A stretch of DNA of 64,000 nucleotides. Origin: Elusimicrobia bacterium HGW-Elusimicrobia-3. Its GTDB lineage: Bacteria; Elusimicrobiota; Elusimicrobia; Elusimicrobiales; UBA9959. Positions 4,447 through 58,202 of this stretch are shown one piece after another (the stretch's first letter is position 1; each line of letters starts with the position of its first letter). The stretch spans positions 3,303 to 67,302 of the forward strand of contig PHAL01000006.1 of assembly GCA_002840355.1 (NCBI GenBank), given 5' to 3'. The notes beneath the pieces were generated by a model. The model had not been told where the DNA came from and searched no databases. It saw only the letters and a program-made list of their open reading frames with translations. The position numbers and the translations under genes were made by a program.

Positions 4447-4574
4447 GGTCCGGCCAGGGCACGCCTTCTCCGGGTACGTTCGGCCACACCGTGGCCTCAC
4501 TCTTTCGCTTCGGTTCGGCGCTGCGCAAGCCTCACCTACGCGAGGCCCCTACGAAGGCATACCCTGTCCTGACC
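4447..4574. repeat. ~128 bp intergenic element with imperfect terminal inverted repeats (copy B; reverse orientation relative to copy A at 25061..25191)
   Basis: Ends ggtccggccagggcacgcc / ggcataccctgtcctgacc pair at 15 of 19 positions. The core shares blocks with the reverse complement of 25061..25191: ggccacaccgtggcc, tcactc, tcggcgct[g/a]cgcaagcctc and gagg(g)ccc. Confidence 0.6.
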
Positions 4575-9994: not shown

Positions 9995-11305
9995 TCAATG
10001 GAACAGGCTGGTCCGCGAAGAGGAGGGAGGCCCTGGCCGCGCCAGGGCAAGCCTGGCCCGCCATTCGTCTATAAGGCCGCACAGTTTATCGCGCGACACG
10101 TTCATTCCCAAATACAAAGCGGGGCTGCCGCCCCCGGCGAACAGCGACCAGTCCATCGAGTCGCCCACCAGGCCCCTTTCTTTGGCCTGGTCCCAGGTTT
10201 TCGTGCCGGGGTAGGGGGCCAGCATGGCCCAATAGGCGTCCCTTATTTTCCCGGCTTCGGCATTGCGGCAGATCTTCTCCAGAGTGGAGTTTATATCTTC
10301 GGCGGTTTCCACCGGCACACCGAACATCAGCAAGGCCAGCACGCCTATGCCCCGGCCGGCCAGCAGGTCCAGAGCGCGCTGGTTTATTTCGCCGCTCAGC
10401 CCGGTCTTGTTCAGAAAGGCCAGCACCTTGTCGCTGAAGCTCTCCAACCCTATAGCCACCTGGTCCATCCCGATGCGGGCTAGCAGGCGGCAGGTTTCCT
10501 CGTCGATCAGGTCGGCCCGCACGGACCCTGAAAAACGGCATTTTCCCGTTAGTCCTCTCTCCTCCAGCCCGGCGGCTATGGCGGACAGGCGGCGCTTGTC
10601 GGCTATGAAAAGATCGTCGTAGAAAACAATTCTTTCGGCCCCTTCCCCCAGGACCAGGCGTTCTATCTCCTCGACCACGAGCCCGGCGGGGAGGGCGCGG
10701 TGGCGCGAGAACAAACGGGAAGAAGAGCAGAAGTCGCAGCGGTAGGGGCAGCCCCTGGCGGAAAAGATGTGGCGCAGCCTTTTACCCCGGTAGTAGGGGG
10801 CCATTTCGCCGCTGGGAAGGGGAAGCTGCGCCAGATCGGCGACGGGTTCGCGCTCCGGGGTCGAATGCAAACGGCCGTCCCGGTAAAAAGCCAGCCCGGG
10901 AACTCCGGCCAGATCGGAGTGATCAAAACGGGAATGCCGCATATAGGACCGCAGCGCTTCCACCAGCGTGAGCTCGCCTTCACCTATCACGGCCAGGTCG
11001 AAACATTTATCCAGAGAACCGGGCGCCATGGAAATGTGTATGCCGCCCAGTATCACCGGCACGCCCAGCTCGGCTTTGATGCTTTTCGCCCATTTTACGG
11101 CGAGGGCGTAGTTATCCGTATTGGCGCTGATCCCTACCAGGCCGGGGGCTTCTTTCAACAGCTGTTCCGGCCTTTCAGCCAGCACCACCTCCGTTCCGGG
11201 CAGGGATCTGTTTATGCTGGCCGCCAGAAAGCCAGGGCCGAGAGGAGGCAGGGAGGTCAGGTCCCCCTCCGCCGCCACTATCAGCCCTATTTTAAGTGTT
11301 TTCAT
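9995..11305 (-). CDS. B12-binding-domain radical SAM enzyme (class B)
   Basis: N-terminal Rossmann-like B12-binding region (KIGLIVAAEG...VPVILGGIHIS) followed by the CxxxCxxC motif ARGCPYRCDFCSS. Start chosen at MKTLKIG (11305) rather than the ORF-track 11338. Confidence 0.8.
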   Translation of the reverse strand: MKTLKIGLIVAAEGDLTSLPPLGPGFLAASINRSLPGTEVVLAERPEQLLKEAPGLVGISANTDNYALAVKWAKSIKAELGVPVILGGIHISMAPGSLDKCFDLAVIGEGELTLVEALRSYMRHSRFDHSDLAGVPGLAFYRDGRLHSTPEREPVADLAQLPLPSGEMAPYYRGKRLRHIFSARGCPYRCDFCSSSRLFSRHRALPAGLVVEEIERLVLGEGAERIVFYDDLFIADKRRLSAIAAGLEERGLTGKCRFSGSVRADLIDEETCRLLARIGMDQVAIGLESFSDKVLAFLNKTGLSGEINQRALDLLAGRGIGVLALLMFGVPVETAEDINSTLEKICRNAEAGKIRDAYWAMLAPYPGTKTWDQAKERGLVGDSMDWSLFAGGGSPALYLGMNVSRDKLCGLIDEWRARLALARPGPPSSSRTSLFH

Positions 11306-11373
11306 TTTCCTGTAACGCCCGGGAATACCGCAGGCCACGGAAATTCTACCTTAAACCCCCGCGCCGCCGGCGC

Positions 11374-11739
11374 TCAGTGGCAGCCGTGCCCCTGGCAGCA
11401 GTCGGTGGCCAGCATCTCCGGAAGTTCGCGCTTCTTGAACAGCTCTATGGCCTGGGCCAGCGGGCCCTGCGGGGCGCGGAAAACCTTTATACCGCCGGCG
11501 TTCAGGTGCTGCAGCGCGCGGGCGCCTATGCCGCCCACCAGTATGCCGCTCACGGCCTTGCCGGTTAGCGCGCCGAGGGGATTGCATTGCCCGTGCTCGT
11601 GGTGCTGGTTGCCGTTGTCGATGAATTCCACCTTGCCGCCTTCCACGTCGCAGATCGCGAAGAAGGGGGCGCTGCCGAAATGGCCGTACACCCTGGACTT
11701 CAGGCCGTCGTTGTTCTCCACCGGTACGCAGATGTTCAT
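11374..11739 (-). CDS. NifB/NifX-type (dinitrogenase FeMo-cofactor-binding-like) domain protein
   Basis: 121 aa. MNICVPVENNDGLKSRVYGHFGSAPFFAICD... and ILVGGIGARALQHLNAGGIKVF match the NifX/NifB C-terminal fold family. Cys/His-rich tail CCQGHGCH. 4-nt overlap with the DUF134 gene. Confidence 0.7.
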   Translation of the reverse strand: MNICVPVENNDGLKSRVYGHFGSAPFFAICDVEGGKVEFIDNGNQHHEHGQCNPLGALTGKAVSGILVGGIGARALQHLNAGGIKVFRAPQGPLAQAIELFKKRELPEMLATDCCQGHGCH

Positions 11740-12056
11740 TTATGTTCTCCTTTACCGGGCGGCCGGCGCAGTTCCACCGGCCCCCCTTCTATCTTCACGG
11801 CCTTGCCGTGCACCACGGCGTCGGCCAGCTTCCGCCTGGCGGAAGCGAGTATGTTGCCGAAGGTCTGCCTCGAGACCTTCATGGCCGCGGCCCCGGAGGC
11901 CTGGTCCCCGCGCTTTACGTCGGCGTGCTCCAGGGCCTGCAGCTCGTCGAGCTGCAGCGTCACTTCCTCCAGCTCGCAAAGCGGCACGGCCCGCGGCTTG
12001 AAATAATAGGCGCGGGGTTCGGCGGTCACTTTCCTGCATTTAATGGGACGCGTCAT
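11736..12056 (-). CDS. DUF134 (UPF0251) family putative DNA-binding protein
   Basis: MTRPIKCRKV..YFKP..V..EEVTLQLDELQALEHAD...AAAMKVSRQTFGNILASARRKLADAV is the characteristic DUF134 pattern (sigma-70 region-4-like HTH). Confidence 0.7.
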   Translation of the reverse strand: MTRPIKCRKVTAEPRAYYFKPRAVPLCELEEVTLQLDELQALEHADVKRGDQASGAAAMKVSRQTFGNILASARRKLADAVVHGKAVKIEGGPVELRRPPGKGEHK

Positions 12057-16630: not shown

Positions 16631-16704
16631 AACTCCTCCTTGTGCGGGGCGACTCTCCGCCTCCTTATATGCTGACGCTCCGGGTTGCGATATGGTTTAG
16701 TCGC

Positions 16705-17127
16705 TCAGCGGCGGTTCCGGCCCCCGCCCCCCTGGCCGTTGCGGCGTTCTATCGTTTTGCCCCGGCGGTACTCCTTGCGCAGCTCGTCGCGGCGCTCCTT
16801 GGTCAATTTCTGCCATTTGCCGAATTTTTTCATCAGCTTTTTCTGGTCCGCCGGCGGCATGGCCTGAAAGCGCTTCCAGCGGGCCCTGAGCTCGGCCTGC
16901 TTTTCCGCCGGCATGGCGCGGAACCGCGCGAACTTCTTTTTCAGTTCCTCTTTCTTCCCCTCTTTCAGCCCCTTCCACTGCTCGTAGTTGGCCAGCACGC
17001 GCTTTTTTTCAGCCTCGGGCAGCTTCTCCCAGGCGGCCTGCCCGGCGGCCTGGCGCTCGTCGGCGGCCAGCGCGGCCGGCGCCGACATCAGGAATATCCC
17101 CAGCAGCAGCAGGTTAAGGCTTTTCAT
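16705..17127 (-). CDS. DUF3106-like exported helical-repeat protein
   Basis: Signal peptide MKSLNLLLLGIFLMSAPAALA. Repeats of the type RFRAMPAEKQAELRARW / RFQAMPPADQKKLMKKF typical of DUF3106, a family often linked to ECF sigma operons. Confidence 0.55.
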   Translation of the reverse strand: MKSLNLLLLGIFLMSAPAALAADERQAAGQAAWEKLPEAEKKRVLANYEQWKGLKEGKKEELKKKFARFRAMPAEKQAELRARWKRFQAMPPADQKKLMKKFGKWQKLTKERRDELRKEYRRGKTIERRNGQGGGGRNRR

Positions 17128-17395
17128 ATACCCTCCAGGTCGCGGTGGACGCCGTTACCGTCCCGGTAGATAACGGGGCTGTCACGGCGGCGGTGGACAA
17201 AGCGGGCGCGGTGGAAACCGAGACTACCGCGCTTCCCAGCTCCGCGCTTTCGATCAGTTCCAGGTTGTACAGTAATTCATAATCGCTGAAGAAATCCAGA
17301 TTGTTCAGCACCTCGGCCGGCGCGCTTACCGCCGCGGCCATCGCGGCGGCCGTGAGCGCCAGGCCCAGCCAGAAACTCAAAGCCCGCTTCCTCAT
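17114..17395 (-). CDS. hypothetical exported protein
   Basis: 93 aa with a signal-like N-terminus (LSFWLGLALTAAAMAAAVSA). Translationally coupled to the flanking genes (4-nt and 14-nt overlaps). Confidence 0.4.
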   Translation of the reverse strand: MRKRALSFWLGLALTAAAMAAAVSAPAEVLNNLDFFSDYELLYNLELIESAELGSAVVSVSTAPALSTAAVTAPLSTGTVTASTATWRVYEKP

Positions 17396-17691
17396 AATTC
17401 TTCCTCCGGTATAGCCTCGAGCACGTCCATATCGGCCAGCAGGTCCAAATGCTCTATGAAAGCCGCGCTGACGGCCCCCGGGCCGTCCGGCGACCGCTCT
17501 TGCGGGCCGCGGGCCAGCACCAGCACCAGTATGACGGCCAGGGCGGCGGCGGGGGCTAGCAGCCAGGCGCGCCGCGGCCCCCGCTCTTCGCCGGCAGCCC
17601 GCAATATGGCGGCCTTCTGGCGCGGCCAGAAGGCGGCGCCGCGGCGTACCGCCAGCAGCGAAACAAGTTTTTCCTCTTTCTCGTAGTTCAT
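17392..17691 (-). CDS. putative membrane-anchored anti-sigma factor
   Basis: 99 aa with a single TM segment (AWLLAPAAALAVILVLVLA). Immediately follows the ECF sigma gene and overlaps it by 4 nt. No zinc-finger (HxxxCxxC) motif. Confidence 0.4.
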   Translation of the reverse strand: MNYEKEEKLVSLLAVRRGAAFWPRQKAAILRAAGEERGPRRAWLLAPAAALAVILVLVLARGPQERSPDGPGAVSAAFIEHLDLLADMDVLEAIPEEEL

Positions 17692-18296
17692 AAGTATTCC
17701 CCCAGCGAGGCCCCGAGTTTGCGCCTGGCCTCGAACCAGTGGGCCTTTACGGTGCCCTCGGCCATCCCCAGCGCGGCGCCTATTTCCGCCATGCTTACCC
17801 CTTGCGACCGCAGCACGGCCACTTCGCGCTGCCGGGGCGGCAGGGCGTTTATGGCGGCCTGCACCCGGCGCTCCAGTTCGGCGGCCAGCGCCGCCTGTTC
17901 GGGGCGGCCGGCGGGGTCGTCGGGCAGCAGGTCTTCCAGCGCCGTCCCTTCCCCGTCCTCGCCCCTGTCCGCCAGCCCCACCCAGGCCCGCAGCCGCCGC
18001 CAGCGCCAGTAGGAGCGGGCCTTGTTGGCCGCTATACGCAGCAGCCAGGTCTTCAAAGAACTTTCGCCGCGGAAATCCTTAAGGTGCCGCCAGGCGGCTA
18101 TGAAAGTCTCCTGGGTGATGTCCTCGGCCGCCGCCGTATTGCCGCAAAGCCTGAGCGCCACGGCGTAGACCAGGCGCTGTTGCTCCTCTACCAGCAGGGC
18201 AAAGGCGCTGTCCGCGTCTTCAGCGCCGGGGCCCTGCGGCCCGGCCTTTTTTTCGGTCTCCATTAAGTTTTCCACATTAGTACTGACGCCCCCCAT
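17688..18296 (-). CDS. ECF-type RNA polymerase sigma-70 family factor
   Basis: Region 2 (AEDITQETFIAAWRHLKDFRGESSLKTWLLRIAANKARSYWR) and region 4 HTH (LPPRQREVAVLRSQGVSMAEIGAALGMAEGTVKAHWFEARRKL). The start may instead be METEKK at 18263. Confidence 0.85.
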   Translation of the reverse strand: MGGVSTNVENLMETEKKAGPQGPGAEDADSAFALLVEEQQRLVYAVALRLCGNTAAAEDITQETFIAAWRHLKDFRGESSLKTWLLRIAANKARSYWRWRRLRAWVGLADRGEDGEGTALEDLLPDDPAGRPEQAALAAELERRVQAAINALPPRQREVAVLRSQGVSMAEIGAALGMAEGTVKAHWFEARRKLGASLGEYL

Positions 18297-18324
18297 GGCA
18301 GGATAGTTTAGCCCCTGCCTTGAT

Positions 18325-18353
18325 TATATAGGGGAAAGGGCCGCTGTATCAAA
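18325..18353 (-). promoter_or_regulatory. candidate sigma-70-type promoter for the ECF sigma operon (TTTGAT-17-TATATA)
   Basis: Minus strand reads TTTGAT acagcggccctttcccc TATATAAT, ~30 nt upstream of the sigma start. Confidence 0.35.
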
Positions 18354-18399: not shown

Positions 18400-19590
18400 T
18401 TAGAACTTGAAGGTGAGGCCGATGTCGTAGGCGTCCTCGGAGAGCTCGGACTCCAGCGTGATCGTGCCGGAGCTATCCGTCTCTTTTATCGTCTTGGCCA
18501 GGGCTTTCTTGTAACCGAGGTTCAGGGCGAACCTGGGCGAGAACTCGTAGCCGGCGCCCAGGGTCAGGTGATGCTCGGTCACGCCGGGAAAGCCGATGAC
18601 GCGGAAATACTCGTAGCCGAAGGTGCTCATGGACGTACCCTGGATGTCGGTGTTGCCCATCGAGTTGAAGTTCTGATGCTCTTTCACCGGGCTCTTGCCG
18701 TAATTCCAGCCGGCGCGCAGCGTCAGCTTGTCGGTGGCCTTGTTCTGCACGCCCACCGCGTACACGGTCTGGGACTCCCAGTCGAAGTCCTTGTAACCGT
18801 CGGCATTGGCCCAGTCCAGGTACTTGATCTCGGCTGAGAAAAGCCACTTATCGAGGCCCTTGTAGGCCGCGCCGGCCGCGTACTGGGCGGGGTTCTCCAG
18901 CTTCAGGTCGTCGATGGCGCCCGCGGAGTCAAAGTCGTAAATGCGCTTATGCTCCACGTTCTGCGGGGTAACGTAAGTGGCGCCGAAAGCCCAATCGCCC
19001 ATAGCGTAGGCGGCGCCCAGGCGCAGGCCCATGGCGTAATTGTGGGAAAGGCCGCTGCCGAAATCGGCCGCCTGATAGTCTATGTCGAGGCCCGCGCCGT
19101 AAGAGAGGTTTCCGCTCTTGTAGGCAACGGCGGGCACGAATTTCATTACGGACACCTTGGTATTGGTATCCATGGGGTCCTTATTCCGGTAATCGACGCC
19201 CATGCCGGACACGCCGTAGGCGGCTATGCCGAAGGTCACTTTTTCGTTGACCGGGGTGGACAGGCCGATGGCCGGGATAGCGTAGTCCGCGTCCTGGCTT
19301 TCAGCGTTCCAGTTGCCGGGCATGCCGCCGCCGGACGGGGCCAGCACCGTGGCCTTCACCGTGGGGGCGAACACCGTGCCCGCGAAGTTGAACTGCGAAC
19401 CCTCTATCTGCGAGAGCGCCGCAGGGTTGGAGAAGATGGCGCTGATGGCGTCCTGCGGGGCCGCTATGCCGGTGCCGCCCATCGCGCGCGAGGTGGGGCC
19501 CACGCCGATAAGGTTGTCGCCGTTGGTAGCGTAACCGTTCGCCGCGAAGGCGGCCACTAACACCGCCGCTAACAGTTTGGATCTTTTCAT
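18400..19590 (-). CDS. FadL/TodX (OMPP1) family outer-membrane transporter for hydrophobic compounds
   Basis: Signal peptide, then the hatch-domain motif NGDNLIGVGPTSRAMGGTGIAAPQDAISAIFSNPAAL. Beta-barrel pattern with C-terminal GLTFKF. Confidence 0.8.
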   Translation of the reverse strand: MKRSKLLAAVLVAAFAANGYATNGDNLIGVGPTSRAMGGTGIAAPQDAISAIFSNPAALSQIEGSQFNFAGTVFAPTVKATVLAPSGGGMPGNWNAESQDADYAIPAIGLSTPVNEKVTFGIAAYGVSGMGVDYRNKDPMDTNTKVSVMKFVPAVAYKSGNLSYGAGLDIDYQAADFGSGLSHNYAMGLRLGAAYAMGDWAFGATYVTPQNVEHKRIYDFDSAGAIDDLKLENPAQYAAGAAYKGLDKWLFSAEIKYLDWANADGYKDFDWESQTVYAVGVQNKATDKLTLRAGWNYGKSPVKEHQNFNSMGNTDIQGTSMSTFGYEYFRVIGFPGVTEHHLTLGAGYEFSPRFALNLGYKKALAKTIKETDSSGTITLESELSEDAYDIGLTFKF

Positions 19591-19615
19591 TTAACCTCCG
19601 TGAATTTTTCCGAAA

Positions 19616-20167
19616 TTATATGAACAGCGAAGACTTGCTGCTGCCGGCCTCGGCCAGGAACTTGCCCACGCCGGCGCTCTTGAGATTCGGGTAGTCCACC
19701 ATCTCCTCCATCTTGTAGCCCATCAGGTCCATGCTCATCTGGCAGACGTAGATCTGCACGCCGGAGTCGGCGGCGGTCTTCATCAGCTGCTCCAGGCTCA
19801 TCACGTTGTGCTTCTTCATGATGGACTTGATCATGGCCTTGCCCATGCCGCCCATGTTCATCTGGCTGAGCTTGGTGCCGGCCGCCCCGTTGGGCAGCAT
19901 CAGCTCGAACATCTTGGAGACCGTGTCCTTGGAGACGGTCTTCTTCGGGTCCTTCAGGGCCGGGATGGACCAGAAGGTGAAGAACATGACCACCTTCTCG
20001 AACATGGCCGCGGCGCCAGTGGCGATGATGAAAGAAGCGAGGAGTTTATCCATGTCGCCGCTCATCACCACCATCGAGAGCTTGTCCTCGGGCGCGTTGG
20101 CCTTCAATGTTTCCACGTCGGCCTTGAGGGCCGCTACCTGCGCTTCCAGTTCCTTGATTTCCGCCAT
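19616..20167 (-). CDS. DsrE/DsrF-like (DrsE_2, COG2210-type) sulfur-carrier-like protein with N-terminal coiled-coil
   Basis: KLSMVVMSGDMDKLLASFIIATGAAAM and the conserved-Cys context IYVCQMSMDLMG are typical of the DsrE_2 family. The N-terminal ~25 aa are heptad-like (IKELEAQVAALKADVETLK). Confidence 0.65.
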   Translation of the reverse strand: MAEIKELEAQVAALKADVETLKANAPEDKLSMVVMSGDMDKLLASFIIATGAAAMFEKVVMFFTFWSIPALKDPKKTVSKDTVSKMFELMLPNGAAGTKLSQMNMGGMGKAMIKSIMKKHNVMSLEQLMKTAADSGVQIYVCQMSMDLMGYKMEEMVDYPNLKSAGVGKFLAEAGSSKSSLFI

Positions 20168-20176
20168 ATTGTCTCC

Positions 20177-21271
20177 TTATTTGCCTAAAGAAAGCGTGAA
20201 AGCCGTGCCGGCCTCAGCCTCTTTTTTAACGTGCTGAAAATAGACAGCTAGCGGCCTGAAGAAGATGTGTATCCACTTGGTGAACGGCACGATGAGCAGT
20301 ATCCACACCGTCTCTATGGCGATGTTGAAGCGGTACACCTTGGCGAGCAGCGGGTCCCCTGGGCCGTAGGCCACGTTGAGGTAATGGGTGAACAGCAGGC
20401 TCGCGCCGATCAGGAACATCGTCACCACGAACAGCCAGTCGCTCGGGTGCGAGAACTTGGAGGATTCCGCGCTCTTGAACATGCGCCGCAGCGACATGAT
20501 GCCGCCGCCGACGAGGATGGCCAGGCCGGCGTACCAGACCAGCAGGCTCACCGGGCCGAAGGCGCCGTAATGATCGTCCAGCGGCGACAGCAAATGCAGG
20601 TTGGAGATCAGCAGCGTCAGCACATAGCCGCTCATGACCAGCAAATGCGCTATCCAGCGGGTCCAGTCCGTCTCCTCGCAGCCGTTGAAGTTCTTCTGCG
20701 TGAAGCCGTGCACCAGGGTCTCGTAAATGTGCGCGGGCTTGAGCGAGGCCTTTATGCCGCCCAGCGGTTTCACTATCACGTGGCGGTACATGTTGACGAT
20801 ATAGCCGCCCAGCGCTATGGTGACATAGACCGGGAAGGCCAGCTCTATTTTCCCGGCGAGCGCGCCGAAGTCGCCCGTATAGGAGGCGTACAGCCAGTAG
20901 AAAGCCGCCAGCATGCCCAGGGCCAGCCAGGTCTGCAGCCAGCCGTTCTTGTAAAAGATTTTAGAGAGACCGGTGATATCGTATTTGGCGATGAGATAGC
21001 GGCGCAGGGTCATCATGTACTCGCCGGGCTGGGCCTCGCGCGGGCAGGTGGACGAGCACTCGCCGCAATAGTAGCAATGCCAGGGCTCGATGGCGGAGTT
21101 TATTTTCTCCTCCATGCCCACGTGGCCGGCGCGTATCAGCTTGCGCGGAAAGGAGGCGTCCTCTTTGGACAGCGGGCAGACCGCCGTGCAGTTGCCGCAG
21201 TTAAAGCAGGCGGAGATGTCGAAAGCGCCGTACTTTTTTATCTCGTCTATGAGTTCCGGGTTCACCTTCAT
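20177..21271 (-). CDS. QmoC-like subunit: HdrC-like 2x[4Fe-4S] domain fused to HdrE/NarI-like multi-TM (heme b-type) domain
   Basis: CFNCGNCTAVCP and CYYCGECSSTCP motifs in the first ~90 aa, then ~6 TM helices with conserved-looking His residues (MYRHVIV, WIAHLLVMSGY, LFTHYLN, KWIHIFFRP). Confidence 0.75.
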   Translation of the reverse strand: MKVNPELIDEIKKYGAFDISACFNCGNCTAVCPLSKEDASFPRKLIRAGHVGMEEKINSAIEPWHCYYCGECSSTCPREAQPGEYMMTLRRYLIAKYDITGLSKIFYKNGWLQTWLALGMLAAFYWLYASYTGDFGALAGKIELAFPVYVTIALGGYIVNMYRHVIVKPLGGIKASLKPAHIYETLVHGFTQKNFNGCEETDWTRWIAHLLVMSGYVLTLLISNLHLLSPLDDHYGAFGPVSLLVWYAGLAILVGGGIMSLRRMFKSAESSKFSHPSDWLFVVTMFLIGASLLFTHYLNVAYGPGDPLLAKVYRFNIAIETVWILLIVPFTKWIHIFFRPLAVYFQHVKKEAEAGTAFTLSLGK

Positions 21272-21564
21272 TATTTAGCCTCCCCGGCCTTCAGCTCGTA
21301 CTTGGGCCAGTCGCCGCGGCCGGGCACGTCGGAGATCTTGCCGTACTTGCGCAGGCCGGCCACGTACCAGATGGCCAGGTCGTGGGGCAGGCCGGCCGCG
21401 GCCGCCAGCTCGGGCGCCGTCTTGGGCCCCTCTTTCAGAGCGTCGAGGATGGCTTTCTGCGCCTTGTTCTGCGCGGCCACCCGGTCGCGCAGTTCCTGCG
21501 GCACGGGGCCGCGGAGCTCGTTGAGTCTTTTCAGCTGTTCGGCGAGTTTTTTTGCGTCGGCCAT
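21271..21564 (-). CDS. small hypothetical protein (possible winged-helix fold), Cys-free
   Basis: 97 aa, tightly coupled on both sides (1-nt gap upstream, 1-nt overlap downstream). The segment APELAAAAGLPHDLAIWYVAGLRKYGKI resembles a wHTH recognition region. Confidence 0.4.
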   Translation of the reverse strand: MADAKKLAEQLKRLNELRGPVPQELRDRVAAQNKAQKAILDALKEGPKTAPELAAAAGLPHDLAIWYVAGLRKYGKISDVPGRGDWPKYELKAGEAK

Positions 21565-21565
21565 A

Positions 21566-23359
21566 TTATTCCTTGGCGATGGCGTCCACCATCGCGTCGA
21601 ACTGGTCCAGCGTCCAACCGGCCACGTTGATGGCCCGCACGGGGCAGACCGCCACGCAGGCGCCGCAGCCTTTGCACAGCGCCGGGTTCACCACGGCCAC
21701 CTTCTTGCCGTTATGCTCGCCCATCATCAGGGCGCCGTCGTAGGAGCACTCGGGCGGGCACAGGCCGCAGCCGGTGCACTTGTGCTCGTCGACCACGGCG
21801 ACGAAAGGCTCGAGCGGGATATCCGGCTCGGCCAGCAGGATAGCGGCCTTGGCGGCCGCGGTGCCGGCGGCGGCCATGGCCTCGGTGACGTCCATCGGGT
21901 ACTGGGCGGTGCCGGCCACGAAGATGCCGGAGTTGGCCAGTTCCACCGGCCGCAGTTTTAAGTGCACTTCCTGCAGGAAACGGTCCGCGCTCGACGGCAG
22001 CTTCAGCTGGGATTTGATCAGGGAGATGTCGGCCGGCATCATGCCGGTGACCAGCACTACCAGGTCGGCCTTTACCTCCAGCTCTTCGCCCCAGGTCAGC
22101 ACGTCCTTCACCTTAACGGTATGGCCGGTGCGGTCGGAAGCGACTACGGGCTGGTCGGCCTCGTTGTGGCGCATGAACAGCACGCCGTCCTTGGAGGCTT
22201 TGTCGTAATACTCCTCATGCTGCATGCCGTAGGTGCGTATGTCGCGGTAAATATCGTAGACCCGCACGCCGGGATATTTGTCCTTCAACTGGTTGACCGT
22301 GTGCAGGGCGGCGGTGCAGCAGACGCGCGAGCAATAGTCGTTGATCTTGCCGTCGGCCTGGGGCTTGTGCACCCCTTCCACCTGGCGCGAGCCCACGCAA
22401 TGTATCAGGGCCAGGCTCTTTATCTCCTTGCCGGCCAGCGCCAGCCGGCCCGCCGGGGAATTCTTCATCAGCGCTATGAACTCGGGCAGCGTGACCACGT
22501 TGGCGTCCTCGCCGTAACCGAACTCGCCTTTCGCGGGTTTGTAATGCTCGTAGCCCGTGGCCATCACGATGGCGCCGGCTTTCACCTGTTCGGATCTGCC
22601 GTCGGCTTTCTTGAAATTGATCTTAAAGTTGCCCACGAAGCCGCTGACGAAGTCTATGTCGACGGCGGTATGCACGGTGATCCGGCTGTCGGCGCGCACC
22701 AGCGCCTCCAGCTTGCCGGCCACGGCGGCGCCCTCTTCGCCCGACGGGTATAGCCGGCCGAGTTCCAGCAGTTTGCCGCCCAGCGCCGGACCCTTCTCTA
22801 TGATGACGGCCTCGAGCCCTTTGCCCGCGGCCGACAGCGCCGCGCGCATGCCGGCCGCGCCGCCGCCTATCACGGCCACGCGCTGCTCGGCCGCCACGCG
22901 GATGGCGTTGAGCGCGTCCTTGCGCAGCACCTTCTCCACGCCGGCCTGCGCCAGCTTGATGGCCTTGGCGGTGGCGCCGGCCTTGTCGAACTTGTGCACC
23001 CAGCTGGCCTGCTCGCGGATATTGATATGCTCGTGCAGGTAGGGGTTCACGCCGGCGCGCTGCAGTACGTTGCGGAAGGTGAGTTCGTGCAGGCTGGGCG
23101 AGCAGGCCGCCACCACGGTGCGGTTGACGCCCAGGTTCTTTATGTCCTCGGCTATCAGGTCCTGCCCGTTGGAGGAGCACATGAAGGCATACTCGCGGGC
23201 GACCGCCACGCCGGGATACCGGGCCAGCGCCGCGGCCACCGCTTTCACGTCGATGATGTCGGAGATGTTGCCGCCGCAGTGGCAGACGTACACCCCGACC
23301 TTCGGCTCCTGCCGGAAATTATCCTTGGCGGCTTCGTCCCGTGTTTTTTCGTCCATCAC
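21566..23359 (-). CDS. HdrA/QmoB-like FAD and Fe-S flavoprotein (HdrA N-terminal Cys domain + TrxR-like FAD domain + C-terminal 2x[4Fe-4S] ferredoxin domain)
   Basis: VGVYVCHCGGNISDIIDV...FMCSSNGQ...VVAACSP (HdrA N-domain), GGGAAGMRAAL dinucleotide fold, CVGSR...YCSRVCC, and CTGCGLCPPEC / CKGCGACVAVCP. Confidence 0.85.
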   Translation of the reverse strand: MMDEKTRDEAAKDNFRQEPKVGVYVCHCGGNISDIIDVKAVAAALARYPGVAVAREYAFMCSSNGQDLIAEDIKNLGVNRTVVAACSPSLHELTFRNVLQRAGVNPYLHEHINIREQASWVHKFDKAGATAKAIKLAQAGVEKVLRKDALNAIRVAAEQRVAVIGGGAAGMRAALSAAGKGLEAVIIEKGPALGGKLLELGRLYPSGEEGAAVAGKLEALVRADSRITVHTAVDIDFVSGFVGNFKINFKKADGRSEQVKAGAIVMATGYEHYKPAKGEFGYGEDANVVTLPEFIALMKNSPAGRLALAGKEIKSLALIHCVGSRQVEGVHKPQADGKINDYCSRVCCTAALHTVNQLKDKYPGVRVYDIYRDIRTYGMQHEEYYDKASKDGVLFMRHNEADQPVVASDRTGHTVKVKDVLTWGEELEVKADLVVLVTGMMPADISLIKSQLKLPSSADRFLQEVHLKLRPVELANSGIFVAGTAQYPMDVTEAMAAAGTAAAKAAILLAEPDIPLEPFVAVVDEHKCTGCGLCPPECSYDGALMMGEHNGKKVAVVNPALCKGCGACVAVCPVRAINVAGWTLDQFDAMVDAIAKE

Positions 23360-24645
23360 AGTTTCCTCATATAGCTGGCGGCTTCCATCGCGGCCGAGCC
23401 GGCGTCCACCACCGAGTCGGGAATGTCGCGCGGCCCCTTGACCACGCCCGCGGCGAACACGCCGGCCCCGGCCGTGACGGCCGAAGACACCATCTCGTCG
23501 GAAAGCTTCACGAAACCATAGTCGTTGTTCTCCGCGCCGAGGCCGAAAGCGGCCGCGTCATGGCCGGGCACCAGGCCCTGCGACAGCACCACCAGCTCAT
23601 GCTGCACCTCGGCGGGGGCGGAATCCCCCTCCTGCCGCTCTATGCGCAGTATTGGGTTATGCTTCTCGTCCTCGGTGATGCGGGCCACCTTGGCTTTCAC
23701 GAAGTTGATGCCCATGGCCCGGGCGTTGTTGTAGAACTGCTCGTAGCCCTTGCCGAAGGCGCGGATGTCCATGTAGTAAATGGTGATGTCGGCTATCGGC
23801 AGCGACCCGGAGAGCAAAATGGCCTGCTTGATGGCGTACATGCAGCAGACGCGGCTGCAGTAGGGCACGCCTATGCTCTTGTCTCGCGAGCCGGCGCACT
23901 GCACGTAGGCGATGGAGCCGGGCACCATGCCGTCGGAGGGCCGCAGCACGCGGCCGTAGGGGCCGTGCGGCGCCAGCAGGCGCTCGGCGGCCATCGGAGA
24001 GATCACATTGGGCAGTTTGCCCAGGCCGTACTGTTTCTTGGCCGTCATCGGCGTGGTTTCGTAGCCGGTGGCGAGTATTACGGACTTGGCCTTTATCTCC
24101 ACGGGGGCCGGCTCCTGCAGGAACTCTATGCAGTCCTTGGGGCAGGCGCGCGCGCAAGCGCCGCAGCGTATGCAATGCTCGGGGTGCATGACGGGGTACT
24201 GCGGTATCGCGTTGGTAAAGGGTATCGAGATGGTCTTCTTGGCGCCCATGCCCTGCTCGTATTCGTCGGGCAGGTAGACGGGGCAGACCTCTTCGCAGCG
24301 CTTGCACGAGATGCATTCCTTCTCGTCGATATAGCGCGGTTTGCGGGTCACGGAAGCGGTGAAGGATTTGCCCTCGCGCTTTATGGCGTCCACGGTGCTG
24401 TATGTAAGGGTAGTAATGCGCGGGTGATGCGAGACCGAGGCCATGCGCGGGGTGGTGATGCAGCTGGCGCAATCCAGGGTGGGGAACACCTTGCTCAGCG
24501 AGATCATCTTGCCGCCGATGCTGGGCGCTTTCTCGACTATCGCCACGGAGTAACCCTGGTCGGCCAGGTCCAGCGCGCTCTGCAGCCCGGCGATGCCCGA
24601 GCCCACCACCAGCGTGTCCACTTCTATCTTTTCAATGTCGCTCAT
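23356..24645 (-). CDS. HdrA/QmoA-like FAD flavoprotein with inserted 2x[4Fe-4S] ferredoxin domain
   Basis: VVGSGIAGLQSALDLA...VEKAPSIGGKM...LDCASCI (HdrA signature), inserted CISCKRCEEVCP / CIRCGACARACP, and CAGSRD...YCSRVCC. Confidence 0.85.
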   Translation of the reverse strand: MSDIEKIEVDTLVVGSGIAGLQSALDLADQGYSVAIVEKAPSIGGKMISLSKVFPTLDCASCITTPRMASVSHHPRITTLTYSTVDAIKREGKSFTASVTRKPRYIDEKECISCKRCEEVCPVYLPDEYEQGMGAKKTISIPFTNAIPQYPVMHPEHCIRCGACARACPKDCIEFLQEPAPVEIKAKSVILATGYETTPMTAKKQYGLGKLPNVISPMAAERLLAPHGPYGRVLRPSDGMVPGSIAYVQCAGSRDKSIGVPYCSRVCCMYAIKQAILLSGSLPIADITIYYMDIRAFGKGYEQFYNNARAMGINFVKAKVARITEDEKHNPILRIERQEGDSAPAEVQHELVVLSQGLVPGHDAAAFGLGAENNDYGFVKLSDEMVSSAVTAGAGVFAAGVVKGPRDIPDSVVDAGSAAMEAASYMRKL

Positions 24646-25019
24646 ACGGCGGCCACCGCCTTTTCCATTTCGGAGATTTCCTTCAGGAAGGCCGCGCGGC
24701 AGACCGTGCAGATAGTGGTCAGCTTGAGCCGGTTGGCGGCTATGCCCTTGGCCCGCATCTGCTCGTAAACCCGGGCCACGCGTTTGGAGAGCCGCTCGTA
24801 GGCGCCCTCATAAGGACAATCCGAGCCCGAGGACATGATGATGATGCCCCCGATGCCCCTGTCGAAAGCCCGCAGGTAGAAATCCTCCGGGAACATCACC
24901 GGGTCCGGCACGCGTATGATATAAGTGTTGGCGCTGTACCCCATCCGGGCCTGCCCCACCGCGTCCGCCCCCGGATAAGAGCTGTGGTTAGTAGTAATAA
25001 TCAGTATTTTTTTTGACAT
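24642..25019 (-). CDS. MvhD/FlpD-like (hydrogenase delta-subunit-like) protein with degenerate cluster-binding cysteines
   Basis: The family-like backbone is kept (KILIITTNHSSYPGADAVG...IIRVP...FYLRAFDRGIGGIIIMSSGSDCPYEGAYE..RV...M...GI...RLKL), but most positions usually occupied by Cys are T/H/S/P. Confidence 0.6.
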   Translation of the reverse strand: MSKKILIITTNHSSYPGADAVGQARMGYSANTYIIRVPDPVMFPEDFYLRAFDRGIGGIIIMSSGSDCPYEGAYERLSKRVARVYEQMRAKGIAANRLKLTTICTVCRAAFLKEISEMEKAVAAV

Positions 25020-25060
25020 GCTAAAAAGTACCGTTCAAGAAAGACTTGCCGTCTCTCGGA

Positions 25061-25191
25061 GGTGAGGCAGGGTCATGGGTTCCGAGGGCCCTCACGGAAG
25101 GCGAGGCTTGCGTAGCGCCGAGCCTGAGTGAGGAGGGGCGGCCACGGTGTGGCCGACCCCGTGCCCGAGTGTCCCATGACCCTGCCTCACC
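25061..25191. repeat. 131 bp intergenic element with perfect 19 bp terminal inverted repeats (copy A)
   Basis: ggtgaggcagggtcatggg (25061-25079) and cccatgaccctgcctcacc (25173-25191) are exact reverse complements. An internal palindrome ggccacggtgtggcc is present. Homologous in reverse orientation to 4447..4574. Confidence 0.65.
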
Positions 25192-25227
25192 GACTCCGCA
25201 TCTCGCGGATCAAGATAGTGGTTCGAC

Positions 25228-25473
25228 TTACTTCTTACGGGTCACAAACAGGGAATCATATCCGTCGCGTTCGAGCACGCCCATGTACTCGTGGCCGGAC
25301 TTGCCGCACCACGCGGGGATGTCCTCGCGGCTGCCCTTGTCGCCGGACTGTATCTCCAGCACGCCGCCCACCGGCACGCCGGCTATCCCCTTCTTCGCTT
25401 CTAGCAGCGGGCCGGGGCAGGCCATCGAGCGGGCATCCACCACTTTCGCGGGTTTTATCTGGCTAAGGTCCAT
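25228..25473 (-). CDS. TusA/SirA-family sulfurtransferase
   Basis: CPxP active-site motif (ARSMACPGPLLEAKK) and a two-layer alpha/beta sandwich-size protein (81 aa). Start at MDLSQIK has a GGAGGA RBS. Confidence 0.8.
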   Translation of the reverse strand: MDLSQIKPAKVVDARSMACPGPLLEAKKGIAGVPVGGVLEIQSGDKGSREDIPAWCGKSGHEYMGVLERDGYDSLFVTRKK

Positions 25474-25490
25474 ATATCCTCCGTTAACTC

Positions 25491-25793
25491 TCAAAGGTCG
25501 AAATTAGGGCAATAGAGCTTCTTGATCCTGGAGACAAGCTCCTCCAGGTTGGGGTCTTTGATGCTATAGAAGATGCGGTTGCCGTCGCGGCGCTTCTGTA
25601 TAAGGCCGCGGTCGGCAAGGACGCGCAGGTGCTGCGAGATGTTCCCCTTGGTCGTGCCGAGCTTTTCGATAACCTCGTGCACGAACATTTCCCTCTTCAA
25701 CAGCATACAAATTATCATAAGCCGGGAGGGATGCGCAATACAGGACAGCATACCCGCTATCCCCTCCGCCTTGGCCTGCATCGTCTTGTTCAT
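25491..25793 (-). CDS. ArsR/SmtB-family transcriptional regulator (candidate thiol/persulfide-responsive type)
   Basis: wHTH region HPSRLMIICMLLKREMFVHEVIEKLGTTKGNISQHLRVLADRGLIQKRRDGNRIFYSI. Cys in alpha2 (IICML) and near the C-terminus (LYCPN). Start is uncertain: 25793, 25781 or the ORF-track 25835. Confidence 0.75.
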   Translation of the reverse strand: MNKTMQAKAEGIAGMLSCIAHPSRLMIICMLLKREMFVHEVIEKLGTTKGNISQHLRVLADRGLIQKRRDGNRIFYSIKDPNLEELVSRIKKLYCPNFDL

Positions 25794-25797
25794 GTAT

Positions 25798-25829
25798 AGT
25801 AGTTTAGCAGGTACTAAACTAGTTGTCAA
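25798..25829 (-). promoter_or_regulatory. candidate promoter (TTGACA-17-TAAACT) overlapped by an inverted repeat operator (TAGTTTAG-6-CTAAACTA)
   Basis: Minus strand reads TTGACA actagtttagtacctgc TAAACT actatac ATG. The 8 bp perfect inverted repeat (10 bp with one mismatch) fills the spacer and -10 region. Confidence 0.4.
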
Positions 25830-25919
25830 GCCCATGGCTGTGCCGTATCAAGCGCTATGCGCGACAGGCGGCTAGCTGCCAGCCGGGGCCGGGGGCCCCG
25901 GGGCGGGATATTTTGGGAT

Positions 25920-37816: not shown

Positions 37817-38860
37817 TCAGCGGGCGGAGGGGGACCAGCCGCGGCGATGCAGGTATTCGAGAATGTCTTTTACGATAAAAGGCCCCTCGTAGACCAGACC
37901 GGAGTAGACCTGCACCAGGTCCGCCCCCAGTTTCAGCTTCTCCAGCGCGGTCGGCCCGTCGAAAACGCCGCCCGAGCCGATGACGGGCACGCGGCCCTTC
38001 ACCAGCGCGGCCGTTTTGGCCAGCACGGCGTTGGAGAGCTCGCGCAGGGGGCGCCCGCTGAGGCCGCCCTCGTAGCCGCTCCAGTAGACCGGGACCGAGG
38101 AGCGGCTTACCGTGGTATTGGTGGCGATCAGGCCGAAGCCCTTCTCCACGGCCAGGGCGGCCGCGCCCTCCAGGCCGGCGTCGTCGAGGTCGGGGGCGAT
38201 CTTGACGAAGAAAGGCTTGGTCCGCTTCTGGCCGGCGGCGAAATCCAGCATGGGTTCCAGCAGGCGGCGCAGCTTGTCCCCGCCGTGCAGGCTGCGCAGC
38301 TGCAGCGTGTTGGGGGAGCTGATGTTCACCGCGAAATAGTCGCCGAACTCGTACATCACCTTCAGCGTCTCGAGGTAATTTTTGGGCGCGTCCTCCATGG
38401 AGCAGTCGGCGTTCTTGCCCACGCTGATGCCCACCGGCACCGGCAGCGGCAGCAGGCGCTCGAGCGACTTGGCGGCTTCCCAGGCCCCGGCGTTATTGAA
38501 ACCCATGCGGTTGATGATGGCCTTGTCGTCGCGCAGGCGGAACAGGCGCGGCTTGGGGTTGCCCGGCTGCGGCCGCAGCGTGACGGTGCCGAGTTCGAGG
38601 AAGCCGAAACCGAGGCCGGCCAGGAAACGGGCGGCCTCGCAGTTCTTGTCGAAGCCGGCGGCCAGGCCTACGGGGTTGCGGAATTTAATGCCGGCCACCG
38701 TGACGGGCAGGTCTTTGGCCCGGGCCATCAGGCGCACCACCGAGTTCAGCGCTTCCAGGCCCTGCGCCGCGCGGGCGGCGCGGATGACGGCATCGTGCAC
38801 CGTCTCCGGGTTGAAGTTGAAGAGCAGGCTGCGGATAAGTTTACGGTAGAGGAAGCCCAT
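37817..38860 (-). CDS. pyrD: dihydroorotate dehydrogenase (quinone), class 2
   Basis: N-terminal membrane-association extension. Catalytic-Ser motif VNISSPNT (class 2, not the Cys of class 1). GLIATNTT, GGV motifs. Confidence 0.9.
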   Translation of the reverse strand: MGFLYRKLIRSLLFNFNPETVHDAVIRAARAAQGLEALNSVVRLMARAKDLPVTVAGIKFRNPVGLAAGFDKNCEAARFLAGLGFGFLELGTVTLRPQPGNPKPRLFRLRDDKAIINRMGFNNAGAWEAAKSLERLLPLPVPVGISVGKNADCSMEDAPKNYLETLKVMYEFGDYFAVNISSPNTLQLRSLHGGDKLRRLLEPMLDFAAGQKRTKPFFVKIAPDLDDAGLEGAAALAVEKGFGLIATNTTVSRSSVPVYWSGYEGGLSGRPLRELSNAVLAKTAALVKGRVPVIGSGGVFDGPTALEKLKLGADLVQVYSGLVYEGPFIVKDILEYLHRRGWSPSAR

Positions 38861-38893
38861 AGTTGTCTGACAATTCTAGCAAAAGGCCCGCGG

Positions 38894-58194: not shown

Positions 58195-58202
58195 AGCTTC
58201 CT

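Follow-up and report, generated by a model that had tools for sequence, protein, structure and literature searches.

The operon and its genes

We analysed a stretch of 64,000 nucleotides (hereafter, the window) from the groundwater Elusimicrobia bacterium HGW-Elusimicrobia-3, in which nine open reading frames (ORFs) run head to tail on the minus strand and fill positions 18400-25835. As is well supported by the evidence below, this operon encodes a membrane redox complex of Qmo architecture together with dedicated sulfur carriers of the TusA and DsrE families instead of adenosine 5'-phosphosulfate (APS) reductase. In public annotation, its products go by names such as "hypothetical", "4Fe-4S ferredoxin" and "aromatic hydrocarbon degradation protein".

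In the order of transcription, the genes encode an ArsR-type regulator (25793-25491, or from 25835 in the mechanically called ORF; HTH_5, 47.9 bits), an 81-residue TusA (25473-25228; PF01206, 64 bits at a cut-off of 28.6) and an MvhD/FlpD-like protein of 125 residues (25019-24642; PF02662 FlpD, 66 bits). These are followed by two HdrA-like proteins, one of 429 residues in the position of QmoA (HdrA-like 1; 24645-23356; 449 bits with the HdrA2 model) and one of 597 residues in the position of QmoB (HdrA-like 2; 23359-21566; 479 bits with the same model, in two stretches), a 97-residue protein matching no family above threshold (p97; 21564-21271) and a QmoC-like protein of 364 residues (21271-20177; NCBIfam qmoC, 135.8 bits). 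A DrsE_2 protein of 183 residues (20167-19616; PF13686, 154 bits, cut-off 25) and a 396-residue FadL/Toluene_X channel (19590-18400; PF03349, 101 bits, cut-off 29.7) complete the set.

Pfam and NCBIfam profiles upheld all domain assignments of an initial annotation, which had been made from the sequence alone. That annotation had spoken of a ten-gene operon; we counted nine genes, as does its own gene list, and found no tenth. Similarly, the genes from the MvhD-like to the QmoC-like one number five, not six as claimed. The spacings had been given correctly, namely -4, -4, +1, -1, +9 and +25 nucleotides (nt) from the MvhD-like gene onwards, 17 nt between the ArsR and TusA genes and 208 nt between the TusA and MvhD-like genes. 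The promoter/operator at about 25.8 kb and the terminator at about 18.36 kb were both verified, the latter being an intrinsic terminator on the minus strand (18383-18356) whose 12-bp stem, with 8 GC pairs, precedes a T-rich tail. Co-transcription is indicated by the overlaps between genes and by the presence of a single promoter/operator and a single terminator. Finally, the reported lack of an AprAB, Sat or Dsr partner in the window was borne out by a Pfam scan of 30 other large ORFs, which revealed housekeeping and efflux genes only and not a single Apr, Sat or Dsr domain.

The core cluster recurs across phyla

The QmoC-like protein has thousands of relatives. In a survey limited to one genome per species, we collected at least 575 QmoC-like relatives, kept the best 80 loci and mapped the nine window proteins onto all of them by blastp; below, loci carry the prefix L and QmoC-like representatives the prefix P. 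The core order TusA-MvhD-HdrA1-HdrA2-QmoC could be judged in 61 loci without truncation in this stretch and was found in 59 of them, and under a stricter completeness rule 57 of 59 loci carry it. In core loci, the TusA gene always stands directly before the MvhD-like gene, and 56 of the 59 contain a DsrE-family gene. The association with TusA and DsrE proteins that had been noted for the window is thus real and strongly conserved. The DsrE-family gene takes several forms: the 183-residue protein encoded downstream, a 140-residue DrsE_2-like protein encoded directly upstream of TusA (27 loci) and a 122-residue DsrE-like protein encoded after QmoC (14 loci). Some loci hold two or three DsrE paralogues as well as duplicated TusA genes.

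The initial annotation had made its proposal depend on synteny in related genomes, and the core indeed recurs in at least six bacterial phyla (Elusimicrobiota, Bacteroidota, Chloroflexota, Planctomycetota, Chlorobiota and Spirochaetota). Among the hosts are many Bacteroidales, further Bacteroidota, Anaerolineales, Phycisphaerae, Chlorobiota, Krumholzibacteriia and Rectinemataceae, and two of them, Labilibaculum euxinus and Ancylomarina longa, are in culture. Even two distant QmoC representatives with 28-33% identity to the window protein belong to the same type of cluster (P0320 in L093 and P0261 in L094), one of these clusters lying on an archaeal-looking contig with CarS-like and archease marker genes. 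Neither among the recurrent neighbours of the 80 loci nor in the Pfam-annotated loci did we find an Apr, Sat, Dsr or CCG/HdrB gene, and no sulfite-handling gene recurs beside the cluster in the 80 loci.

The two exceptions to the core order are L056, from Candidatus Methanoperedens (L056:8982-17000), and L081. In both, HdrA- and MvhD-like genes accompany a QmoC-like gene, the order deviating from that of the core, and TusA is missing; in Methanoperedens, two QmoC-like genes stand in tandem. These arrangements probably represent separate membrane Hdr-type complexes.

Not all genes of the window operon belong to the conserved core. A FadL-family gene follows the DrsE_2 gene in 10 Elusimicrobia loci only, and the FadL gene found after QmoC in L087 encodes a protein just 25% identical to that of the window and therefore constitutes a separate recruitment; judged from these sequences, the channel was recruited twice independently. 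ArsR regulators accompany 12 of the 80 genome loci and the Elusimicrobia metagenome loci L003 and L004. Both genes, which the initial annotation had counted as part of the system, are thus lineage-specific additions outside its conserved core. Conversely, the closest relatives of the operon (L007 and L008, at about 11080-11840) possess two genes between QmoC and DrsE_2 that are missing in the window, encoding a 122-residue DsrE-like protein and a CGGC-domain (PF08821) protein, and because of these two extra genes we regard the window operon as a reduced version. The same pair also occurs in L012, L016 and L029.

Architecture of the redox subunits

We scored cofactor motifs on alignments of 27-82 family members from related loci. 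HdrA-like 1 combines a thioredoxin-reductase-like flavin adenine dinucleotide (FAD) domain with an inserted 2x[4Fe-4S] ferredoxin domain, covers positions 137-561 of the HdrA2 model and matches residues 142-562 of methanogen HdrA at E = 9e-111. It shows GxGxxG, DCxxC and two four-cysteine motifs, and C250, C263, C267 and C268 are 100% conserved. Complementarily, HdrA-like 2 consists of the N-terminal cluster domain of HdrA, an FAD domain without inserted ferredoxin and a C-terminal 2x[4Fe-4S] ferredoxin domain. It matches the HdrA2 model in the N-terminal domain and at positions 306-642, with a visible GxGxxG motif, and HdrA of PDB entry 8rvu at E = 5e-120. Its cysteines C26/28/61/86 and C321/343/347/348 and the eight C-terminal ones are all 96-100% conserved. 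Both proteins match HdrA at E <= 1e-107, and on the basis of these alignments they jointly reproduce every domain of one methanogen HdrA.

The initial description of a Qmo-like architecture with a split-off MvhD module holds, as the 125-residue FlpD-matching gene is separate and HdrA-like 2 ends in a ferredoxin domain. Alignment with MvhD (9sw2_D) revealed that four of the five canonical [2Fe-2S] cysteines are replaced in the separate protein: CNWC is changed to TNHS, the cysteine of "vmCsG" to proline and the first cysteine of GChhGdC to serine. Across the family, only C68 (94%), C104 and C107 (both 100%) are conserved, and these three residues may either bind a cluster together with a ligand from a partner protein or provide a redox-active CxxC.

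The QmoC-like protein starts with an HdrC-type 2x[4Fe-4S] domain, which is followed by a six-helix NarI/HdrE-like domain. Its residues 7-344 are colinear with positions 5-359 of the 360-position qmoC model, that is, the match is full-length; still, at 135.8 versus 300 bits the protein fails the cut-off of the NCBIfam qmoC equivalog (NF038018). Both CxxCxxCxxxCP motifs are 99-100% conserved, as are H209 and H335 (100%), H188 (98%) and C198 (99%), while H275 reaches 67%. An AlphaFold 2 (AF2) model with a predicted local distance difference test score (pLDDT) of 81 contains six long helices. In a Foldseek search with this model, HdrC matched the N-terminal domain, and NarI appeared at rank 29 with a probability of about 0.65. 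PDB sequence searches returned methanogen Hdr/Mvh chains and sHdrA as the only matches and no Qmo structure, and none of the nine proteins matches PF02754 (CCG/HdrB).

As a separator of bona fide Qmo, the NCBIfam cut-off had to be rejected: P0320 (324 bits) and P0261 (306 bits) pass it and nevertheless belong to TusA/DsrE-linked clusters. An automatically assigned "QmoC" name is therefore no proof of an APS-reductase partner. A further protein above the cut-off, P0324, adjoins an NIR_SIR gene. Elsewhere in the superfamily, QmoC-type modules are fused to an HdrD-like Fer4 plus 2xCCG unit (771 residues) or to an SdhB-like Fer2_3 domain (497 residues), as in the representatives P0196 and P0293, and NCBIfam places TcuB among the homologues of the module; fusions of CCG to the module were seen only in such other superfamily members as P0196. 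Such domain combinations give the QmoC-type module the appearance of a quinone-coupling device of general use.

The p97 gene is translationally coupled to its neighbours, HdrA-like 2 and QmoC, and its product is free of cysteine. Its AF2 model (pLDDT 84) comprises two N-terminal helices followed by a winged helix, for which Foldseek returned weak, generic matches of the ArsR, MarR and Zalpha type. The protein has 67 homologues, almost all of the Elusimicrobia type, and among the 57 core loci obtained with the stricter rule, 49 gave a blastp match at this position. A small protein of 78-114 residues is always encoded between HdrA-like 2 and QmoC, distant loci included, which makes p97 a hallmark of the cluster and a putative subunit of its complex.

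Sulfur carriers and lineage-specific additions

The cysteines expected to bind sulfur, whose presence on a proper alignment had been called for at the outset, are conserved throughout in both carriers. TusA displays the CPGP active-site motif; C19 is present in 62/62 family members, and C19, P20 and P22 are each conserved at >=95%. The protein is not an equivalog of E. coli TusA (29.1 versus 78 in NCBIfam). DrsE_2 has an N-terminal coiled-coil segment and a single cysteine, C142, kept in 35/35. Its initial designation as DsrE_2-like stands as far as membership in the DrsE_2 (PF13686) family is concerned, but the NCBIfam DsrE2 equivalog was failed (57.8 versus 210). The FadL-like protein, encoded by the last gene of the operon, bears a signal peptide and an NPA hatch motif.

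Beyond the core, additional genes vary by lineage, yet all of them concern sulfur or reductant. In about 10 Bacteroidales loci, the operon is extended upstream by a YeeE/Sulf_transp gene, three or four exported rhodaneses and a Porin_O_P anion porin. A CoA-disulfide-reductase-rhodanese fusion (Npsr-like) is encoded directly downstream of the cluster in L005, and ArsR regulators together with a gene resembling CoA-disulfide reductase (CoADR) lie upstream of it in L088. In a distant version of the cluster (L087:2547-17190), a Rex regulator comes first, and HdrA-like 1 (903 residues) contains inserted Fer4_20 and Pyr_redox_2 domains of the GltD/NfnB type, which bind NAD(P)H. There, QmoC is followed by FadL, a TonB-type barrel, a second array of DrsE_2-TusA-DsrE-TusA and an FCSD/SQR-like flavoprotein. 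The long form of HdrA-like 1 was also found in L093 and about six genome loci. A variant cluster reads HdrA-QmoC-OsmC-rhodanese, then two DsrE genes; in one example (L091:4745-8563), an MmeI-type restriction-modification gene (1272 residues) lies between the rhodanese and DsrE genes. The regulators comprise ArsR (Elusimicrobia and Anaerolineales), a divergent Crp/FNR protein in 26 loci, all recorded as Bacteroidota, and also LysR, Rex and AsnC. Taken together, these independent additions, with the twofold recruitment of a FadL-family channel, point to the uptake of sulfane sulfur or thiosulfate and its reductive use.

Promoter, operator and regulator

Upstream of the regulator gene, a sigma-70-like promoter on the minus strand (TTGACA-17-TAAACT; -35 at 25829-25824, -10 at 25806-25801) is part of a block spanning 25829-25794. 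Between its two hexamers lies a candidate operator, also on the minus strand, the perfect inverted repeat TAGTTTAG-N6-CTAAACTA (25821-25800), which occurs in perfect form only once in the window (chance expectation, 0.04). The promoter/operator block and the ATG that follows are invariant in L007, L008, L010 and L016, whereas the DNA further upstream is unalignable; by this comparison, the operator is phylogenetically footprinted. The mechanically called ArsR ORF begins 42 nt early, its extension (25793-25835) containing both promoter and operator. Because the promoter block lies within this long ORF and the ATG at 25793 is conserved, we take the latter as the real start of a 100-residue protein. 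As it directly follows the -10 element, the regulator mRNA is probably leaderless.

The ArsR protein passes the HTH_metalloreg cut-off (83.1 versus 55 bits), and its best PDB matches are E. coli YgaV (3cuo), Rhodobacter SqrR (6o8l) and Xylella BigR (3pqj). C43 ("IICML") and C109 ("LYCP"), in the numbering of the long ORF, align with both sensing cysteines: the counterparts are "lmimCyl" and "qfCs" in SqrR (positions C41 and C107) and "LCML" and "YCP" in YgaV. Since the cut-off of the NCBIfam BigR equivalog is failed (75.6 versus 155), we assign the protein to the persulfide-sensing subgroup by motif, not as a BigR orthologue. Judging by these motifs and the promoter layout, control of the operon by an SqrR/BigR-type persulfide-sensing repressor, predicted to act at a promoter-overlapping operator, is well supported.

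The 208-nt spacer between the TusA and MvhD-like genes (25020-25227) has a folding energy of about -112 kcal/mol and harbours a hairpin (25061-25191) with perfect 19-nt arms (25061-25079 and 25173-25191). A copy with 76% identity is located at 4480-4574 of the window, between OEP and AcrB genes, and relatives with 78-83% identity occupy the matching spacer in L007:6097-6208, L008:6114-6208 and L009:6122-6225. By sequence similarity, the hairpin is assigned to an intergenic repeat family resembling repetitive extragenic palindromes or miniature inverted-repeat transposable elements (REP/MITE-like), and a possible effect is uncoupling or stabilisation of the arsR-tusA portion of the mRNA. An Rfam scan of 17.5-26.5 kb returned no riboswitch, no match in the spacer and only sub-threshold matches on the terminator hairpin.

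Neighbouring features of the window

Beyond the terminator, a separate unit (16642-18352) has its own near-consensus promoter, TTGATA-18-TATAAT (18352-18323). It encodes an extracytoplasmic function (ECF) sigma factor (18296-17688), a likely anti-sigma factor (17691-17392) and several small secreted proteins rich in lysine and arginine. The ECF sigma gene set also follows the operon in L007-L012 and L016.

At 57037-60299 on the minus strand, a DAO-family flavoprotein gene (403 residues) adjoins a gene for a 698-residue protein with Fer2_4, Pyr_redox_2 and BFD-like [2Fe-2S] domains. The pair resembles opine/sarcosine-oxidase or HcnBC-type dehydrogenases and is unrelated to the operon. A well-supported amidohydrolase gene (38894-40168, minus strand) is overlapped by a plus-strand ORF of 789 residues (37847-40216). 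The GC pattern over the codon positions of this ORF is atypical, and most likely it is a spurious antisense ORF of this GC-rich genome.

Proposed function and alternative explanations

Our confidence is high that the operon specifies a dedicated sulfur-carrier-linked redox system, and moderate that its complex reduces sulfane sulfur. A quinone-linked oxidoreductase of persulfide, polysulfide or disulfide, as initially suggested, appears consistent with all of the context evidence. In its entirety, our best reading is a quinone-linked complex that reduces TusA/DsrE-bound sulfane sulfur to sulfide, and we give it an even chance of being right; for a bifurcating or confurcating mechanism, our confidence is low but not negligible.

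According to this best reading, external zero-valent or sulfane sulfur would cross the outer membrane, candidate substrates being S8 or polysulfide in the window organism and thiosulfate or polysulfide in lineages that add porin, rhodaneses and YeeE. More speculatively, and by analogy with related channels, the substrate taken up by Elusimicrobia may be S8 or organic polysulfanes, since FadL belongs to a family of channels for hydrophobic solutes, and that taken up by Bacteroidales may be polysulfide or thiosulfate, in view of the anion porin. The sulfur would then be loaded as persulfide or thiosulfonate onto the invariant cysteines of DsrE and TusA, and the complex would reduce this carrier-bound sulfur to sulfide with electrons from the quinol pool, entering via QmoC, and from ferredoxin or NAD(P)H, entering via the inserted ferredoxin domain of HdrA-like 1. 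The cell would thereby gain an electron sink and remove reactive sulfur, rising persulfide levels derepressing the operon.

The underlying layout would be a three-port, HdrABC-like one with a haem/quinone branch in place of HdrB: the HdrC-type clusters would connect not to HdrB but to the membrane domain and, through it, presumably to haem b and quinone. By homology with methanogens, the inserted ferredoxin domain of HdrA-like 1 would serve as ferredoxin port, and in some family members the NAD(P)H module sits exactly at this site. The side formed by the MvhD-like protein and the C-terminal ferredoxin domain, the donor port in methanogens, would here be the one encoded beside TusA. Because the FAD core would join three routes and the MvhD side is encoded next to TusA, we propose TusA/DsrE-bound sulfane sulfur as the third redox partner. 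The reductive direction is favoured because of the Rex and NAD(P)H modules, the Npsr-like neighbours, the importers of oxidised sulfur and the fermentative hosts, among which Labilibaculum and Ancylomarina are cultured fermenters. With potentials of about -270 mV for S0/HS-, about -74 mV for menaquinone (MK), -320 mV for NADH and about -450 mV for ferredoxin, quinol alone is too weak a donor for S0/HS-; therefore, a low-potential second donor (confurcation) or a substrate of higher potential is needed.

Several points weigh against our best reading. The required second donor is itself only postulated, and haem b binding and quinone interaction of the QmoC-like protein are predicted by homology only, the similarity to the NarI fold being weak. 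No catalytic site for S-S cleavage was identified and no HdrB/CCG domain was found in the nine proteins; the DCxxC motif of HdrA-like 1 has a cluster ligand as its counterpart in the methanogen protein. Furthermore, regulators of the SqrR type often control sulfide-oxidation genes, an FCSD/SQR-like flavoprotein is encoded near the cluster in L087, and at least one Elusimicrobia metagenome-assembled genome (MAG) has a Dsr cluster with DsrEFH (PMC10504309, supplement).

Some of these points feed the main rival, namely that the same complex runs in reverse and passes electrons from sulfide or carrier-bound sulfur to quinone, perhaps with bifurcation to NAD(P)+ or ferredoxin; it would then be the anaerobic equivalent of SQR or sHdr and serve sulfide detoxification or lithotrophy. 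We consider this unlikely, even though the regulator belongs to a class that classically controls sulfide oxidation, the flavoprotein in L087 lies beside the second TusA/DsrE array, and bifurcating oxidation would be feasible given that the mean of menaquinone (MQ; -74 mV) and NAD+ (-320 mV) is above S0/HS- (-270 mV). The cluster contains no HdrB, LbpA or Dsr-type module, so that oxidation past S0 would be impossible within it; Rex control and NAD(P)H modules better fit the disposal of reductant, and YeeE, rhodanese and porin additions imply import of oxidised sulfur species, not of sulfide. The Elusimicrobia MAG with DsrEFH-DsrAB (PMC10504309, supplement) speaks for oxidation, while the evidence from the Black Sea cuts both ways: Ancylomarina euxinus and Labilibaculum euxinus are among sulfide-tolerant isolates with a "heterodisulfide reductase system", and this "Hdr system" was offered, as speculation, as possible relief of sulfide toxicity, but the strains tested showed no sulfide oxidation in culture (PMC11129491). 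Less likely again is a cytoplasmic quinol:tetrathionate/thiosulfate-type reductase, the substrate of which would be a carrier-bound thiosulfonate (TusA-S-S-SO3- from tetrathionate or thiosulfate) or a TusA-DsrE heterodisulfide. Such an acceptor of higher potential would remove the thermodynamic problem of a quinol donor, and the extended Bacteroidales operons encode YeeE (a thiosulfate uptake family), rhodaneses (thiosulfate sulfurtransferases) and the anion-selective Porin_O_P. As reportedly described by Liu et al. in 2014, DsrE3A and TusA of Metallosphaera carry thiosulfate from tetrathionate, which we also count in favour of this explanation. The window operon, however, has a FadL-type channel instead of YeeE, rhodanese and anion porin, is controlled by a sensor of the persulfide type and, like the other loci, lacks a recurrent sulfite-handling neighbour; a Porin_O_P homologue that adjoins ttrBA in Dissulfuribacter (PMC13490349) lends the thiosulfonate some further credit.

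Two further explanations would make the carriers incidental. One of them, a general oxidoreductase between ferredoxin or NAD(P)H and quinone, with TusA and DsrE serving only cofactor or tRNA thiolation or Fe-S maintenance for the complex itself, is very improbable. TusA does have biosynthetic roles in other bacteria and the complex is very rich in Fe-S clusters, but persulfide-sensor control, the multiple DsrE paralogues and duplicated TusA genes of some loci and the co-occurrence of importers, rhodaneses, outer-membrane channels and persulfide-reductase-like genes all argue against it. The least probable explanation is a conventional QmoABC whose APS reductase is encoded in another part of the genome, TusA and DsrE being mere neighbours. 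The Qmo-like architecture, the full-length homology to the qmoC model and the passing scores of P0320 and P0261 are what such a complex would show; conversely, TusA/DsrE linkage in 56-59 loci across phyla is inexplicable by chance neighbourhood, neither the window nor any locus surveyed holds aprBA or sat, and the cultured hosts Labilibaculum and Ancylomarina are fermenters that do not reduce sulfate. Moreover, the window QmoC scores 135.8 against a cut-off of 300, and the MvhD protein is separate and has lost the canonical cluster cysteines.

A bolder reading would be a three-port, flavin-based con- or bifurcating enzyme that couples menaquinone and a low-potential carrier (ferredoxin, or NAD(P)H in the fused variants) to two-electron redox reactions of TusA/DsrE-bound sulfur. 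This would amount to a membrane-linked and so far unrecognised way of respiring sulfur, polysulfide or thiosulfate, one shared widely among "fermentative" members of the Bacteroidota, Elusimicrobiota, Chloroflexota and Planctomycetota and by some Archaea. The cluster could then also reflect the ancestral setting from which APS-reductase-linked Qmo arose; we put this reading forward as a doubtful idea.

Significance

In sediments, aquifers and guts, fermenting anaerobes commonly reduce sulfur, polysulfide or thiosulfate, an activity at present attributed to Psr/Phs molybdoenzymes, NSR/Npsr and MBS. Our findings indicate a sulfur-handling system with a Qmo-type complex that is widespread among unrelated anaerobes and uncharacterised so far. 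If the proposed function is true, it would add a new module to the anaerobic sulfur cycle, present in at least six bacterial phyla and probably archaea, and it would explain the "orphan" type II Qmo genes of organisms without Apr or Dsr. KEGG- or NCBI-style "QmoC" or "HdrA" calls would then no longer be evidence of sulfate reduction or methanogen-like metabolism, and a testable HdrA-based bifurcating core, plugged into the membrane instead of HdrB, would become available. Because cultured carriers exist (Labilibaculum and Ancylomarina), the idea is directly testable.

Comparison with known systems

The closest likeness is to QmoABC of sulfate reducers and Chlorobi, reportedly described by Pires (2003), Ramos (2012) and Duarte (2016): both comprise two HdrA-like flavoproteins, a membrane subunit fusing HdrC and NarI/HdrE parts and an MvhD module, and no HdrB. 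Canonical QmoB, however, carries a C-terminally fused MvhD-like domain, whereas the operon encodes MvhD as a separate 125-residue protein with a different cysteine set. The operon partners are TusA and DsrE, not aprBA and sat, both in the 64-kb window and among the neighbours of the 80 loci; a conserved winged-helix protein and control of the persulfide-sensor type are added, and the hosts of the cluster are mostly fermentative non-sulfate-reducers. The window QmoC also stays below the NCBIfam cut-off, which is not a clean separator. Thus, three tested features of APS-reductase-associated Qmo are absent here, namely aprBA linkage, a fused MvhD and, for this protein, a score above the cut-off.

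A "type II Qmo" has been reported in organisms without Dsr or Apr, its role there being left open (Neukirchen et al. 2023, PMC10504309), and the operon shares with it HdrA-like proteins very close to methanogen HdrA, as published for type II. The initial statement that the composition is not a described system therefore needs qualification: a type II Qmo without Dsr or Apr had already been mentioned, but Neukirchen et al. draw no link to TusA or DsrE. This link, the winged-helix protein, the degenerate MvhD and the add-ons are undescribed in PMC10504309 and PMC11129491. In the open-access literature, to which our search was confined and which does not extend to subscription reviews, no paper joins QmoC or HdrA to TusA/DsrE in one system, none of those naming both QmoC and TusA connects them, and searches for "QmoC-like" and "Qmo-like" with TusA returned nothing.

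With the methanogen MvhAGD-HdrABC complex (5ODC, 8RVU, 7BKB), the operon has all HdrA domains and the MvhD-like and HdrC-like modules in common, which, by analogy, suggests the same three-port wiring around FAD. In contrast to that complex, it is without the HdrB/CCG catalytic subunit and without a hydrogenase, it splits the HdrA functions over two polypeptides, the canonical MvhD ligands are lost, and the HdrC module is predicted to lead into a membrane haem/quinone domain.

Genetic coupling of an Hdr-derived complex to TusA and DsrE-family carriers is also the hallmark that the operon shares with sHdr, reportedly a sulfur-oxidising Hdr-like system with TusA, DsrE3 and LbpA (Koch and Dahl, 2018), and sHdrA (PDB 6TJR) is a detectable homologue (E = 5e-37). 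Yet sHdr has HdrB1/B2, HdrC1/C2 and lipoate-binding proteins, for which the operon holds no genes, and no QmoC-type subunit. Because HdrB/CCG is missing, the cluster is neither HdrABC nor sHdr.

The proposed chemistry, from sulfane sulfur to H2S, and a persulfide-responsive repressor of the CstR/SqrR type recall Npsr/CoA-persulfide reductase, and in L005 an Npsr-like CoADR-rhodanese gene directly follows the cluster. Npsr, however, is a single soluble flavoprotein with an active-site cysteine and a rhodanese domain, while the operon encodes a multi-subunit membrane complex with separate carriers. In the same line, the extended Bacteroidales versions resemble YeeE/YeeD (TsuA/TsuB) and the YTD (YedE-TusA-DsrE) cluster in having YeeE-like, TusA and DsrE-like proteins in one operon. 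The YTD cluster of sulfur disproportionators, which includes two or three conserved hypothetical proteins (PMC12998232), differs in lacking an Hdr/Qmo-type redox complex, and the window operon in lacking YeeE. Overall, we would class the operon as encoding a complex of the known Qmo/Hdr type whose set of partners is new, and existing annotation leaves the finding unexplained.

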